From a virus (taxonomy: Duplodnaviria > Caudoviricetes), in IMG/VR virus record IMGVR_UViG_3300032334_001433, positions 128,001 through 192,000 of that record: a DNA stretch of 64,000 nucleotides. One strand, written 5' to 3'. Every line of letters starts with the position of its first letter. Position 1 is the stretch's first letter. This document shows, piece after piece, positions 36,264-42,212 of the stretch. A model generated the notes under the pieces. The model saw only the letters and a program-made list of their open reading frames with translations, was not told where the DNA came from and searched no databases. The position numbers and the translations under genes are program-made.

Positions 36264-36659
36264 ATGGTTATGAAATTAGAAATAGGTCAAACCGTAGAGC
36301 TGCACGCTAGATTCAAGTCCAATCTACTTAATGTAGAATACGACGATGTAGTGTTCAAGGGTAAAGTTGTTAGCAATCCTAAGTGGTTGGATAACGATTA
36401 CGTTTCTGTATATACAGGAACAAAAGAATACCCTACTTCTTATATCCATAAGAGGTTCATTGTTGGTTTTGAGTTTTCCAAACAGCGCTCTGATACACGA
36501 GTGTTCAAGGTAAAGGCCAAACTAAAAGGTTCGGTCTATAACGTAATTTCTGGAAATGGCAAGGTCTCATGTGATTGCGTGGGGTTCCAGTTCCGTAGAG
36601 ATTGCAAGCACGTCAAAAAGATTAAGGAATTTTTGCTTTTGGACACAAAAAGTGCTTGA
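36264..36659 (+). CDS. SWIM Zn-finger protein
   Basis: SCDCVGFQFRRDCKHV; start may be ATG 36270. Confidence 0.75.
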   Translation: MVMKLEIGQTVELHARFKSNLLNVEYDDVVFKGKVVSNPKWLDNDYVSVYTGTKEYPTSYIHKRFIVGFEFSKQRSDTRVFKVKAKLKGSVYNVISGNGKVSCDCVGFQFRRDCKHVKKIKEFLLLDTKSA

Positions 36660-36684
36660 CAAGCCGCCCGAAAGGGTATATAAT
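36656..36684 (+). promoter_or_regulatory. sigma70-type promoter
   Basis: TTGACA-17-TATAAT. Confidence 0.85.
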
Positions 36685-36732: not shown

Positions 36733-37134
36733 ATGAGTACATTCACAGTTGCAGGTGTTTCCACCCATGCCGAGCAAGGCACCAAGGTTCGTTTTGCCAA
36801 TGATCTGGCATCTCGTGTTAAGCTGTTGTCCAAAGGCGGACACGCTCCCCTTGAACTCGTCGAGTTGCCTAAGCCGATGACTAAAGCAGAAGCTTGCCAG
36901 TATCTTCTAGATGCAGGTGGAGTTTTTGAACAATGGACTTCTGTTATTACAGAGACCATGGGCAAGAAACAAGGTGCTAAGATTAGCACGCCGAAAGTAG
37001 TTAAGGCAAAAGCAGTTAAAGCAACAACGGCTAAGGCTCCTGTTGTTAAAGCAAAGCCAGTTAAAGTTGTGAAAGCTAAGGAAGAAGATTTCGATATTGA
37101 AGAAATCAAAGAACTTGCAGACGCAACTTTTTAA
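36733..37134 (+). CDS. Hypothetical protein with a K/A/V/P-rich histone-like tail
   Basis: KVVKAKAVKATTAKAPVVKAKPVKVVKAK. Confidence 0.75.
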   Translation: MSTFTVAGVSTHAEQGTKVRFANDLASRVKLLSKGGHAPLELVELPKPMTKAEACQYLLDAGGVFEQWTSVITETMGKKQGAKISTPKVVKAKAVKATTAKAPVVKAKPVKVVKAKEEDFDIEEIKELADATF

Positions 37135-37175: not shown

Positions 37176-37183
37176 TATAAATA
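37176..37183 (+). promoter_or_regulatory. T4-type late promoter upstream of the leader peptide and tRNA array
   Basis: TATAAATA. Confidence 0.75.
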
Positions 37184-37204
37184 ATTTATAGCAAGGAAAA
37201 AGTA

Positions 37205-37300
37205 ATGTTAAGTAAACTAATAGCCCACGGAAAAGACATTTATGGCACACAGCCAGAATGCTTTGCGCGTCCAAATTCATGGAGAGTGCATCGAGGGTAA
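37205..37300 (+). CDS. 31-aa putative attenuator leader peptide
   Basis: SD AAGGA at 37193-37197; MLSKLIAHGKDIYGTQPECFARPNSWRVHRG*, containing all 20 amino acids. Confidence 0.7.
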   Translation: MLSKLIAHGKDIYGTQPECFARPNSWRVHRG

Positions 37301-37327
37301 GTTTACAGAACATTTCTGAAATCTAAC

Positions 37328-37367
37328 AAACCCTCGGTACCCGCAAAGTCCGAGGGTTTTTTATTTT
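37328..37367 (+). terminator. Intrinsic terminator (attenuator 3:4 stem)
   Basis: AAACCCTCGG...CCGAGGGTTT plus TTTTTTATTTT. Confidence 0.85.
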
Positions 37368-37405
37368 AAGTATCCTAGCAAAGCAAAGGGTCTTTAAAAT
37401 AAGAG

Positions 37406-37434
37406 TTGACAAGGTGTCAAGAGTGTGCTATAAT
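37406..37434 (+). promoter_or_regulatory. sigma70-type promoter of the tRNA array
   Basis: TTGACA-17-TATAAT. Confidence 0.85.
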
Positions 37435-37446
37435 AGACACATAAAC

Positions 37447-37489
37447 AGCAACAGAATGATAGAGTTAGTTGCTTAGTTCTTTTAAAATT
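37447..37489 (+). promoter_or_regulatory. boxB-like hairpin and boxA-like element
   Basis: AGCAAC/GTTGCT stem then GTTCTTTAAAATTT (rrn boxA is TGCTCTTTAACA). Confidence 0.5.
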
Positions 37490-37507
37490 TGTATACCATT
37501 TTTAAGT

Positions 37508-37581
37508 GTTCGGTTAGCTCAATAGTAGAGCATACGACTGATAATCGTAAGACAGAGGAGCGTTACCTCTACCGAATACCA
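37508..37581 (+). tRNA. tRNA-Ile(GAT)
   Basis: Cloverleaf, CCA; atypical T-loop AGCGTTA. Confidence 0.85.
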
Positions 37582-37586
37582 TATGT

Positions 37587-37662
37587 GTCCTGTTCATCTA
37601 GCGGCCTAGGATAGTACCCTTTCACGGTATTCACACGGGTTCAAATCCCGTACAGGACTCCA
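37587..37662 (+). tRNA. tRNA-Glu(TTC)
   Basis: Cloverleaf, CCA. Confidence 0.9.
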
Positions 37663-37890
37663 TATTAAAATGTATTAGGTTACCAACCCAGTAGGTGATC
37701 TAGGAGAGGATTAATCTGTGGCCGCACAGACTCTGCCTAGACACATGAAAGATAGAGATCGACTTTGAATTGATCTTGGCGTCGCGCTGGAGTAAGTTGG
37801 ATGGTAATGTGAATGACGACCAGTCGCATGACGAATGCGTGGTTAGTCCCAGTGGGATTGTTGTCGGACATCCTAGTACATTTTAATATG
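37661..37890 (+). ncRNA. Unassigned ~230-nt structured RNA inside the tRNA array
   Basis: 19-bp closing inverted repeat and several internal hairpins; no ORF. Confidence 0.6.
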
Positions 37891-37897
37891 GATATAT

Positions 37898-37973
37898 GTG
37901 CGCGTGACCCGAACGGTTAGGGAGCGGATTGCAAATCCGTATCATGCAGGTTCGACTCCTGTCGCGCACTCCA
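37898..37973 (+). tRNA. tRNA-Cys(GCA)
   Basis: Cloverleaf, U73, CCA. Confidence 0.9.
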
Positions 37974-38043
37974 AGTGATGATTTAGATGTTAAACTGAAT
38001 GCGCTAGCAAACGTCCAATCAGGTGCGAAGCCTGTCCTAATTT

Positions 38044-38119
38044 GGTCTTAAAGTGTTCATGGACGCACGACGGCTTGTCACGCCGTAAGAGCGGGGATCG
38101 TTACCCCCTAAGACCGCCA
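38044..38119 (+). tRNA. tRNA-Asp(GTC)
   Basis: Cloverleaf, G73, CCA; atypical T-loop ATCGTTA. Confidence 0.85.
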
Positions 38120-38130
38120 AATTTTATTAT

Positions 38131-38207
38131 GCCCTGGTGACGGAATTGGTATACGTACTGGTCTTAGAAACCAGGTTCTGGGAGTTCAAGTCTCCCCTAG
38201 GGCACCA
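38131..38207 (+). tRNA. tRNA-Leu(TAG) with a short variable loop
   Basis: Cloverleaf, A73, CCA; 5-nt variable region. Confidence 0.85.
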
Positions 38208-38258
38208 AATACTCGCTTTGACTTATGGCGTATAATAGGCTAAGTAATAAGTCACCTT

Positions 38259-38334
38259 GGGGGATTAGCTCATTTGGTAGAGCATCTGCTTTGCAAGCAG
38301 GGGGCGATCAGTTCGAATCTGATATTCTCCACCA
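38259..38334 (+). tRNA. tRNA-Ala(TGC)
   Basis: Cloverleaf, G3:U70, CCA. Confidence 0.92.
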
Positions 38335-38344
38335 GAATTTTTTT

Positions 38345-38420
38345 GCCGGTTTAGCTCATTTGGTAGAGCAGGCGCCTTGTAAGCGTCAGGTGGTCAGTTC
38401 GAAACCGACAACCGGCACCA
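38345..38420 (+). tRNA. tRNA-Thr(TGT)
   Basis: Cloverleaf, CCA. Confidence 0.92.
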
Positions 38421-38426
38421 GTATTT

Positions 38427-38500
38427 GCGGGGTTCATTTAATGGTAGGATTTCAGCCTTCCAAGCTGATAGCGCGAGTTCGATTCTCGCACCCCGCTCCA
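38427..38500 (+). tRNA. tRNA-Gly(TCC)
   Basis: Cloverleaf, CCA. Confidence 0.92.
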
Positions 38501-38506
38501 ATTTTT

Positions 38507-38584
38507 CCGTGTGTAGCGCAGTCTGGTTAGCGCATCTGCTTTGGGAGCAGAGGGTCGGGAGTTCGAATCTCTCTACACGGACCA
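38507..38584 (+). tRNA. tRNA-Pro(TGG)
   Basis: Cloverleaf, CCA. Confidence 0.92.
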
Positions 38585-38590
38585 TTTTAT

Positions 38591-38665
38591 TCCTCGATAG
38601 CTCAGAGGTAGAGCAGCAGACTGTTAATCTGTTGGTCCGTGGTTCGACCCCACGTCGAGGAGCCA
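38591..38665 (+). tRNA. tRNA-Asn(GTT)
   Basis: Cloverleaf, CCA. Confidence 0.92.
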
Positions 38666-38671
38666 GTTTTA

Positions 38672-38758
38672 GGATGCGTGTGCCGAATGGTGAAGGCAGC
38701 TGACTGTAAATCAGTGACATAAGAAACGTTGGTGGTTCGAGTCCATCCGCATCCACCA
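38672..38758 (+). tRNA. tRNA-Tyr(GTA)
   Basis: Cloverleaf with long variable arm, CCA. Confidence 0.92.
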
Positions 38759-38762
38759 AAAC

Positions 38763-38837
38763 GCCTTGTTAGCTCAGCGGTAGAGCAGCGCCCTTACAAG
38801 GCGACGGTCGGCAGTTCAATCCTGTCACAAGGTACCA
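38763..38837 (+). tRNA. tRNA-Val(TAC)
   Basis: Cloverleaf, CCA. Confidence 0.92.
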
Positions 38838-38858
38838 TTTTTATTTTAAGGAAATTTT

Positions 38859-39128
38859 ATGAACTATATCCCATTGCAGAACAAAGTTCTGGTCATTGAG
38901 AATGAAAAGAAAAAAGTTACAGATAGCGGAATCTATTTAGGTGAAGCTAATGGAGACAGCAATACTCGAGCAGGTACAGTTCTTGCTATTGGGCCGGATG
39001 TTAAAGAAGTAAAGGTTGGAGATATTGTTTATCCTATGTGGACAAAATCAAAAGTAGTTAAAGACGGAGACTTGTATATTGGAATTATATCTGAAGAAGA
39101 TATTCTTGCAGTTGTAGAAGCTGAATAA
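38859..39128 (+). CDS. groES: GroES/Cpn10 co-chaperonin embedded in the tRNA array
   Basis: PLQNKVLV, SGIYL, GTVLAIGP, VKVGD, SEEDILAVV. Confidence 0.92.
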   Translation: MNYIPLQNKVLVIENEKKKVTDSGIYLGEANGDSNTRAGTVLAIGPDVKEVKVGDIVYPMWTKSKVVKDGDLYIGIISEEDILAVVEAE

Positions 39129-39135
39129 GATTTTT

Positions 39136-39210
39136 CTGCCGATAGTTCAACGGATAGAACAGTAGCCTTCTAAGCTATTAATAGAGGTTCGATTCCTCTT
39201 CGGCGGACCA
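39136..39210 (+). tRNA. tRNA-Arg(TCT)
   Basis: Cloverleaf, CCA. Confidence 0.92.
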
Positions 39211-39217
39211 TTTTTGT

Positions 39218-39291
39218 TGGGGGTTAGTGTAGCGGTAACACTACAGACTTTGACTCTGTCATCACTGGTTCGATCCCAGTACCCTCTGCCA
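39218..39291 (+). tRNA. tRNA-Gln(TTG)
   Basis: Cloverleaf, CCA. Confidence 0.92.
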
Positions 39292-39345
39292 AATTTTTTA
39301 AAAAGGAGATCTGTCATGAATAGTGACAAGAGTGATAAGATATAC

Positions 39346-39421
39346 GGGACGTTAGCTCAGTTGGTAGAGCAGTAGACTTTTAATCTATTGGCCATTGGTT
39401 CGAATCCAATACGTCCTACCA
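39346..39421 (+). tRNA. tRNA-Lys(TTT)
   Basis: Cloverleaf, CCA. Confidence 0.92.
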
Positions 39422-39436
39422 TAAAACTTTTTAGGT

Positions 39437-39509
39437 GTGGCCTTAGTGTTAGCGGTTAGCACCTCGGATTGTGATTCCGATAGGATGGATTCGAATTCCA
39501 TAGGCCACC
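39437..39509 (+). tRNA. tRNA-His(GTG) without encoded G-1 or complete CCA
   Basis: GTGGCCT/AGGCCAC acceptor stem, C73; flanked by an inverted repeat. Confidence 0.85.
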
Positions 39510-39526
39510 CCTAAAAAGTTTTTATT

Positions 39527-39602
39527 GCCGCGGTAGCTCATCAGGTAGAGCAGCAGACTGAAAATCTGTGTGTGGATGGTTCGAGTCCATCTCGTGGCAC
39601 CA
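39527..39602 (+). tRNA. tRNA-Phe(GAA)
   Basis: Cloverleaf, CCA. Confidence 0.92.
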
Positions 39603-39616
39603 ATTTAGAAAAATAT

Positions 39617-39693
39617 GTCTCGGTAGCTCAATTAGGCAGAGCAGTGGCCTCCAAAGCCAAAGGTTGTAAGTTCGATTCTTACCCGGGATGCCA
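39617..39693 (+). tRNA. tRNA-Trp(CCA)
   Basis: Cloverleaf, G73, CCA. Confidence 0.9.
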
Positions 39694-39702
39694 AAGAATA
39701 AC

Positions 39703-39790
39703 GGAAGATTGGCAGAGTGGCCGATTGCATCAGTCTTGAAAACTGAAGGCTCGAAAGGGTCCGTGAGTTCGAATCTCACATCTTCCTCCA
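39703..39790 (+). tRNA. tRNA-Ser(TGA)
   Basis: Long variable arm, CCA. Confidence 0.92.
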
Positions 39791-39795
39791 AATAA

Positions 39796-39885
39796 GGAGA
39801 GCGGGCAGGATGGTAATGCAGCAGATTGCTAATCTGTAGACTATAGTAATATGGTCACAGGGTTCGACTCCCTGGCTCTCCACCA
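39796..39885 (+). tRNA. tRNA-Ser(GCT)
   Basis: Long variable arm, CCA. Confidence 0.9.
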
Positions 39886-39930
39886 ATTAAGGACAGATGC
39901 AAGCACTAGCTTGTTGAGTCCACCAATTTA

Positions 39931-40007
39931 CGGCCCTTAATTCAACTGGATAGAAAGCAAGTCTTCGAAACTTGAGGTTGGGAGTTCGAATCTCTCAGGG
40001 CCGGCCA
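39931..40007 (+). tRNA. tRNA-Arg(TCG)
   Basis: Cloverleaf, CCA. Confidence 0.9.
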
Positions 40008-40014
40008 TATATAT

Positions 40015-40090
40015 GGTAACGTAGCATAGTGGCTAATGCACCACCTTCATACGGTGTTTATCGTCGGTTCGAGTCCGACCGTTACTACCA
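40015..40090 (+). tRNA. tRNA-Met(CAT)
   Basis: Cloverleaf, CCA. Confidence 0.88.
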
Positions 40091-40096
40091 AATAAT

Positions 40097-40170
40097 GCGG
40101 GTATGATGTAATGGTAGCTTATGACCTTGCCAAGGTTAATGTGAGAGTTCGATTCTCTCTACCCGCTCCA
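40097..40170 (+). tRNA. tRNA-Gly(GCC)
   Basis: Cloverleaf, U73, CCA. Confidence 0.9.
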
Positions 40171-42129: not shown

Positions 42130-42212
42130 GCCCGAGTGGTGGAATGGTAGACACAGGAGACTTAAAATCTCCCGCCTAGTGCGTGCTGGTTCGAGTCCGG
42201 TCTCGGGTACCA
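42130..42212 (+). tRNA. tRNA-Leu(TAA)
   Basis: Class II cloverleaf, CCA. Confidence 0.92.

Follow-up and report, generated by a model that had tools for sequence, protein, structure and literature searches.

Transcription attenuators of the trpL, hisL, leuL, pheL and pheST type carry a short translated leader in front of an intrinsic terminator. Pairing is possible between the end of the leader and the 5' arm of the terminator, the position of the ribosome determines which hairpin is formed, and the signal is the supply of charged tRNA. Here we analyzed a putative element of this kind at positions 37176-37367 of a 64,000 nucleotide stretch of phage DNA (the window), where it lies upstream of an array of 23 tRNA genes. 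The window comprises bases 128001-192000 of a complete phage genome from IMG/VR (record IMGVR_UViG_3300032334_001433; 202,665 bp, direct terminal repeats, 36.6% GC), and the phage has been seen in 12 studies, in metagenomes of lakes, rivers and other fresh waters. The element contains a leader open reading frame (ORF) of 31 codons whose predicted peptide includes all 20 amino acids. Comparison with relatives indicates that this feature is very probably real, conserved and selected for a complete amino acid inventory. With slightly more than even confidence we further propose that it is a ribosome-mediated attenuator, which would let late transcripts extend into the tRNA genes if decoding is slow or does not take place.

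The phage leader differs from the described systems in several respects. Attenuators of the trpL type depend on a run of one codon, whereas the phage leader contains each of the 20 amino acids about once or twice. Additionally, no conserved 1:2 hairpin was found in it, and the genes that would be controlled are phage tRNA genes behind a predicted T4-type late promoter. The Rfam model His_leader scored 15–16 bits with a threshold of 49. The leaders of ilvGMEDA (Ile/Leu/Val) and thr (Thr/Ile) have mixed codons as well and sense more than one amino acid. However, they are limited to two or three related amino acids with repeated codons, whereas the phage leaders present all 20, mostly as single codons, within 29–38 codons. 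In pyrBI the output is likewise set by the distance between ribosome and RNA polymerase, a kinetic sensor of translation versus transcription. There, the ORF runs through the terminator, a close ribosome blocks termination and the signal is UTP-dependent pausing; in contrast, the stop codon of the phage leader is located 21–31 nt before the hairpin and an on-time ribosome would favour termination. Like TnaC, SecM and ErmCL, the phage leader is short and has some conserved residues, including Trp and C-terminal residues next to the stop codon. These peptides use a specific nascent-chain sequence, whereas the phage leader conserves composition and has no recognisable arrest motif. T-box riboswitches also let tRNA charging control genes of the translation apparatus by a choice between terminator and antiterminator, but these RNAs recognise a single uncharged tRNA by direct binding, with no ORF required, and no T-box match was obtained with the phage leader.

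For over 50 years it has been known that phages carry tRNA genes. These are now seen as a counter to tRNA-cleaving bacterial immunity, whereas the control of their expression is largely unknown. As far as the accessible parts of these papers go, phage tRNA genes are described as a counter-defence to such immunity in PMC10264068, PMC11464382 and PMC11555353, and the immunity thereby gives the phage a reason to replace depleted tRNAs. PMC10264068 mentions neither attenuators and leaders nor terminators and promoters, and the accessible parts of PMC11464382 and PMC11555353 do not mention the regulation of phage tRNA genes. A literature search returned no description of phage tRNA genes under the control of a leader peptide or attenuator, and no leader selected to contain all amino acids. 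What is new here is a control element proposed for tRNA genes, a new class of controlled genes, with parts that resemble those of the trp, his and pheST attenuators.

Composition of the cassette

The initial annotation had placed a promoter, a Shine-Dalgarno (SD) sequence, the leader ORF, region 2, a terminator, 23 tRNA genes and a sigma70 promoter in this part of the window. All of these positions agreed with the sequence. The cassette is composed of the following features:

37176-37183, + strand: predicted T4-type late promoter TATAAATA, exact motif
37193-37197, + strand: SD sequence AAGGA, 7 nt before the ATG, as read from the sequence
37205-37300, + strand: leader ORF by translation, 31 sense codons and TAA, all 20 amino acids
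37292-37298, + strand: region 2, CGAGGGT, comprising the last two codons and the first stop base; 5' strand of the putative antiterminator
37306-37318, + strand: small hairpin CAGAA/TTCTG within the antiterminator loop, from the local minimum-energy fold
37327-37367, + strand: intrinsic terminator with 5' arm at 37330-37337 and 3' arm at 37350-37357, then a T-tract
37406-37434, + strand: consensus sigma70 promoter with extended TG, TTGACA-17-TATAAT, 12/12 promoter positions
37508-40170, + strand: array of 23 tRNA genes called by ARAGORN

The leader ORF at 37205-37300 contains the full set of amino acids and 29 different codons, just as had been described before, and its only Met comes from the start codon. 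Region 2 is identical to the terminator 3' arm at 37351-37357 and complements the 5' arm ACCCTCG at 37330-37336. The terminator hairpin (37327-37358) has a folding energy of -16.1 kcal/mol and precedes TTTTTTATTTT; a simple terminator scan passed over it (loop >8 nt). Two RNA-library runs gave low-depth contigs of 151 nt over 37216-37365 and 37369-37509, a length equal to that of a read; they are pieces of a related strain, and DNA carry-over is possible as their source.

T4-type late promoters are located about 6 nt upstream of the start site, lack a -35 element and serve late (structural) genes. The whole genome contained 28 copies of TATAAATA on the + strand and 7 on the - strand. Intergenic copies were found in front of genes matching PHROG families for the baseplate tube cap, baseplate wedge, tail sheath, head scaffold and tail tube. 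Since copies of TATAAATA precede structural genes, the source phage is credibly a T4-like myovirus and the motif credibly its late promoter. Motif and gene context both agree with this promoter class, to which the element is assigned here from sequence alone.

Conservation of the cassette in related phages

Relatives were collected by four routes. The conserved 133-residue protein encoded upstream of the cassette led to 77 loci. A pattern of the terminator sequence led to 58 loci in viral contigs and to 120 in metagenome contigs, 23 of these with the leader. The third route was an exhaustive profile search of 1.84 billion proteins, and the fourth used a profile made from the first hits. In total, approximately 120 metagenomic loci with about 45 distinct peptides were obtained, representing 17 lineages. 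Pairwise identity among the first 14 lineage representatives was 43% on average and ranged from 22 to 78%.

The order of the cassette was the same in all lineages: TATAAATA, an SD sequence or a leaderless ATG, the ORF, a spacer, the terminator, one or two consensus sigma70 promoters, a GTTCTTTAAAA-type motif and the tRNA array. The ORF kept both its position and its length (29–38 codons) across the 17 lineages, which bears out the leader predicted in the initial annotation. TATAAATA was exact in 13 of the first 14 lineages and located 5–25 nt from the start codon, with TATATAATA and CATAAATA as variants. The spacer between ORF and terminator was AT-rich and 21–31 nt long; its length was kept, its sequence was not. 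A GTTCTTTAAAA(T/A)TT motif was located after the sigma70 promoter and just before the first tRNA gene, at 37476-37489 in the window and at the equivalent place in every lineage.

Most lineages carried AGGA or GGAG as SD motif. In lineages B, C and K (L009:3450-3470, L045:4300-4320, L073:4250-4270) the ATG was found 5–6 nt past TATAAATA, where a T4 late transcript is expected to start. Because the ATG is at the predicted transcript start, a leaderless mRNA is implied for these three lineages. An in-frame ATG at the same distance of 5–6 nt was also present in lineages J, M and N, where it would lengthen the leader by six codons.

Wherever a locus extended far enough downstream, the tRNA array began 170–340 nt past the leader ORF, and its first gene was usually tRNA-Ile(GAT). 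The gene upstream of the cassette differed: several lineages had an extra gene of ~900 nt, and UDP-glucose dehydrogenase was the neighbour in L146. The leader therefore travels with the array and not with its upstream neighbour. Throughout the 17 lineages the cassette always stood immediately before a near-complete tRNA array. The more distant relatives found with the 133-residue protein (L016, L022, L043, L049, L061, L068 and L069) had no cassette of TATAAATA, ORF and terminator, and they hold small partial tRNA sets, e.g. Leu/Arg/Ser/Ile/Trp. The leader is therefore found only together with near-complete arrays. Searches of the cultured-phage collection by megablast, blastn and tblastn with the leader region, the upstream protein and the leader of a relative returned no match, and no comparable element was found in Aeromonas phage 65.2 and Synechococcus phage S-H9-2.

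Two variants of lineage F, P0005 (64 residues) and P0010 (45 residues), had a frame that passes the usual stop codon, and the frame of P0005 reads through the terminator sequence. They could be stop-codon mutants that invert or abolish the switch, or assembly errors.

Amino acid inventory of the leader peptide

Within a single genome the pangram is only moderately unusual and, taken alone, weak. At the amino acid composition of the phage, the probability to find all 20 amino acids is 1.3e-4 in 31 residues and 6.4e-4 in 35 residues. Windows of 31 residues in the proteins of this genome reached 20 amino acids in 16 of 55,658 cases, and 2 of 1226 small ORFs were complete. The second of these ORFs has 42 residues, is located outside the window at about 66143 (G000 coordinate) and may be due to chance.

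It is the relatives which carry the weight. Among the 17 lineage representatives, 11 had all 20 amino acids, five had 19 and one had 18, with a mean of 19.6. Three of these lineages were found independently of the first set and contained 20, 19 and 20 amino acids. We compared the peptides with three null models. The first is alignment-free and draws on the pooled, already flattened composition of the family; here 16.0 distinct residues were expected and the probability of a complete set was 0.0004–0.012 per lineage. The second shuffles residues inside alignment columns, so that positional conservation is retained. For 14 lineages it gave 17.6 +/- 0.26 distinct residues and 0.66 perfect pangrams, and none of 20,000 permutations matched the observed 19.57 distinct residues or 9 perfect pangrams out of 14. 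The third and most conservative model keeps the residues shared with the nearest neighbour fixed and redraws the differing positions from the column contents of the family. All 14 lineages were above its mean, with P values from 0.005 to 0.50, and Fisher combination of the 14 values gave ~2e-5, an indicative figure as the lineages are not independent.

The residues D, V, H, K and T were found in different columns depending on the lineage, yet the peptides end up complete. Because these residues relocate while the full set is kept, the pangram exceeds the nulls. Judged by these sequence comparisons, chance and simple inheritance are both rejected by the three models, and the amino acid diversity postulated in the initial annotation was above every control in the relatives.

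Terminator and region 2

Three features of an attenuator were found at the locus. These were: a short ORF with start signals in the 5' leader of the tRNA genes, an intrinsic terminator between both, and an alternative pairing of the terminator 5' arm which a terminating ribosome could mask. Neither a run of any single codon nor a 1:2 anti-antiterminator or pause hairpin was present in the leader.

Hairpins followed by a T-tract were present in all 14 lineages tested, with energies from -11 to -19 kcal/mol. The terminator was also the sole consensus structure obtained by RNAalifold across the 14 lineages, and two of its pairs showed compensatory changes.

The best partner of the terminator 5' arm was searched in each lineage over the whole ORF and spacer, without an alignment. 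Region 2 was the top duplex partner in the window (-13.6 kcal/mol, P=0.003 against shuffled sequences). Counted from the first base of the stop codon, the best partner was located at -9 to +1 in 11 of 14 lineages; in lineage I, with an ORF three codons longer, it was at -18 to -10, and in lineage L at +1 to +8. Taken together, it was found on the last codons and the stop codon in 12–13 of 14 lineages. Partner energies ranged from -7.5 to -14.8 kcal/mol, with P<=0.05 against shuffles in eight lineages. A segment of the CGAGGGT type, as proposed for the putative antiterminator, was recovered at the stop codon of most lineages; nothing convincing was found in lineage D.

Region 2 was kept in two reading frames. 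The window and lineage Q read CGA GGG TAA, lineages C, E, K and O read NNC GAG GGT TAA, and the last residues shift from R-G to E-G while the RNA is unchanged. This points to selection on region 2 at the level of the RNA, as far as can be read from the sequences. Lineages with CCTCGG/CCGAGG terminator arms end the ORF in GAGGTT or CGGGGTT. In the one lineage with CCCCCGG arms region 2 did not co-vary.

Of the 17 terminator-like hairpins in the genome, only that of the leader had an upstream competitor beyond -10 kcal/mol (-13.3, next best -8.1). The local antiterminator fold (-21.3 kcal/mol) was more stable than the terminator (-16.1 kcal/mol). The ribosome was imitated by masking the RNA to 12 nt past the A site, followed by equilibrium folding; attenuators act kinetically, so that this is a limited test. 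In the model the probability of the terminator was ~1 without a ribosome and likewise ~1 when the A site was placed within the last ~7 codons. For stalls in parts of the earlier ORF it dropped towards 0 in lineages A, C, F and N; lineages E, I and J showed a partial drop. The switch predicted in the initial annotation is therefore reproduced in the window and several relatives, but at equilibrium about half of the lineages do not show it. Residues that occur only once were approximately 2-fold depleted in the last five codons (11 observed, 23.4 expected), which partly bears out a prediction of the masking model.

tRNA array and codon choice of the leader

ARAGORN called 26 tRNA genes in the whole genome, with 23 in the array and three elsewhere in the window. 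The set spans all 20 amino acids when Leu-taa at 42130 and the CAT tRNAs are counted. Under strict wobble rules the 31 leader codons use 24 of the 24 anticodon species of the phage, and this coverage was significant given the peptide (P=0.002). The claim that the leader codons mirror the phage isoacceptors was thus confirmed in the window but not in its relatives: among seven related long-array phages coverage was mostly not significant (P 0.03–0.54), and it was significant nowhere once U34 may read four-codon boxes. Similarly, the codon diversity claimed for the leader is evident from the 29 distinct codons in the window, but beyond the peptide only a weak excess was found (Fisher 0.018, non-independent lineages). 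The leader of lineage C lacked Phe, and the normal tRNA-Phe was missing there as well; lineage B had no normal tRNA-Phe but kept Phe in the leader.

In both lineages (L116:7987-8065 and L088:6720-6798) a tRNA of 79 nt takes the place that tRNA-Phe(GAA) has in the other phages. ARAGORN called it Tyr(GTA), but its variable arm is short and its anticodon loop unusual.

Proposed mechanism and alternative explanations

The following course of events, from use of the promoter and translation of the ORF to the direction in which the switch turns and what triggers it physiologically, is inferred. Late in infection RNA polymerase would start at TATAAATA and transcribe the 31-codon leader, with a ribosome trailing it closely. 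When decoding is fast, the ribosome at the stop codon would cover CGAGGGU, the terminator would fold and the transcript would end before the tRNA genes. A delay at almost any earlier codon, or a failure to initiate, would leave region 2 free to pair with the terminator 5' arm once this is made. The polymerase would then continue past the sigma70 promoter region into the tRNA array, and extra phage tRNA would be supplied on demand late in infection. Hence, the phage probably makes extra tRNAs when ribosomes are slowed at almost any codon. For the broader claim of an 'omnivalent' attenuator, in which the speed of a single pioneering ribosome on a minimal leader would set the transcription decision, and a shortage of almost any charged tRNA (starvation or tRNA-cleaving defences of the host) would trigger late transcription of the complete phage tRNA set, we see the chances as evenly balanced. 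On comparative and thermodynamic grounds, the interpretation given in the initial annotation is supported.

If true, the leader would be a general sensor of translation capacity, built from the parts of a trp attenuator with the opposite coding logic, diversity instead of repetition. Phage tRNA arrays would be regulated on demand and not constitutive, and leader-peptide attenuation would extend from amino acid operons to tRNA genes. The case would show that selection can target the set of amino acids in a peptide instead of its sequence, and one could look for the same signature elsewhere. With ~190 nt the element is self-contained and might serve as a compact synthetic sensor of tRNA or amino acid limitation.

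Several results weigh against the proposed attenuator. Lineage D has no convincing region 2 and keeps the pangram nonetheless. At equilibrium, masking never shifted the balance away from the terminator in lineages B, D, K and L, and it hardly did so in G, H and M. Several lineages have a unique V, D or G within the last five codons (Val-28 in the window), which the model would not sense. A conserved 1:2 hairpin, sought in following up the initial annotation, was not found: RNAalifold gave none, and the pairing tried as region 1:2, with a partner that is often Pro CCC near codon 6, was no better than shuffled controls (P 0.19–0.68) and was rejected. Amino acids missing from leaders were not matched by missing tRNAs; the leaders of K, N and L lack D, V or S/V while the matching tRNAs are present. 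An internal Met codon occurred in only 5 of the first 16 lineages, so that elongator tRNA-Met is usually not sampled by the leader. In the simplest two-state version of the switch this absence would be explained because a failure of initiation also gives read-through. The core peptide C..SYGRQPE.FAR.NSW is partly conserved, for which a pure composition sensor has no need. Finally, the sigma70 promoter at 37406-37434 (12/12 positions), of which the earlier interpretation had rightly warned, can drive the tRNA array without the leader.

Some of these results would be accounted for if translation of the leader is sensed but the output is another one. This could be the stability or processing of the late transcript, a trans-acting leader RNA of ~170 nt, or the coupling of ribosome and RNA polymerase. 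The pangram without region 2 in lineage D, the missing equilibrium switch in about half of the lineages and the unique residues where a 2:3 model cannot sense them all speak for such an output. However, it leaves the location of region 2 at the stop codon in 12–13 of 14 lineages and in two frames unexplained, and no other conserved structure was found. We regard it as rather unlikely.

The ORF might also encode a small late protein acting in trans, with a terminator that ends its transcript, while synteny with the array and the full amino acid set would be side effects. The core C..SYGRQPE.FAR.NSW is recognisable across lineages and the ORF is equipped with a promoter, translation signals and a terminator of its own. 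However, the evolution of the leader ORF departs from that of ordinary protein genes. In a comparison over the same 11 lineages its amino acid identity was 0.40 compared to 0.66 for the neighbouring gene. Identities at codon positions 1, 2 and 3 were 0.55, 0.59 and 0.50 in the leader, approximately equal and with little excess at the first two positions, versus 0.73, 0.79 and 0.47 in the neighbouring gene. Synonymous codons were unusually conserved, since the codon was identical in 72% of pairs with a shared residue (53% in the neighbouring gene). Furthermore, residues relocate in compensation and keep the set at 20/20, the C-terminus changes from R-G to E-G at constant nucleotides, and the ORF remains next to the array in lineages with a different upstream gene. 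Pfam and PHROG profiles run against six leader peptides gave no family at E<=1. A trans-acting protein is therefore unlikely.

A late non-coding RNA which ends at the terminator, with the open frame being incidental, would agree with the high nucleotide conservation in the 3' half and with a single-sequence fold of z=-4.9. Across the 14 lineages, however, RNAalifold gave no conserved structure upstream of or apart from the terminator, and none of the Rfam hits reached its gathering threshold (best hits 15–22 bits with thresholds of 39–88, E 0.5–9). The frame was open over 29–38 codons in all 17 lineages with length differences of whole codons in the codon alignment, and translation signals were kept, the start following an SD sequence or lying at the predicted +1. 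Since a complete amino acid inventory can be selected only through translation, we consider a non-coding RNA improbable. Predicted translation, a fast-changing peptide and constraint on both nucleotides and composition make a regulatory leader a better fit than either a micro-protein or a non-coding RNA.

A chance ORF in front of a terminator which merely insulates the tRNA array from late transcription would suffice for a single genome, where a 31-residue pangram is a ~1-in-1000 event among small ORFs (2/1226), but in view of its conservation, the three nulls across 17 lineages and the kept position of region 2 it is very improbable.

Possible analogues and neighbouring features

Two cultured Xanthomonas phages, X1 (OQ427096, L150:8340-8870) and BUDD (ON758385, L151:1501-2031), have an unannotated cassette of similar outline preceding a 34-tRNA array. 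It consists of CATAAATA, an ATG 7 nt later, an ORF of 39 codons, an intrinsic terminator, promoters and a boxA-like motif. The ORF of X1 contains 19 amino acid types and that of BUDD 18; CTGGGT near the end is a 6-nt copy of the terminator 3' arm. A search of IMG/VR returned no relatives of phage X1. With two sequences, the cassette is a possible independent analogue and a lead, not evidence.

The 133-residue protein encoded upstream of the leader (36733-37134) has a tail rich in Lys, Ala and Val and no Pfam match. It has its own consensus sigma70 promoter at 36656-36684 and is widespread in the clade (77 loci).

Within the array, the spacer between tRNA-Glu and tRNA-Cys (37663-37897, 235 nt) is richer in GC and folds at -76.7 kcal/mol (z=-4.3) with paired ends. 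It had no Rfam match, and in some relatives it is only 40–148 nt long. An ORF of 38 residues within it (37770-37886, 19 amino acid types) was considered as a second leader and rejected as incidental, being located in structured spacer RNA and having a TTG start. The spacer may give a small stable RNA that is freed when the array is processed.

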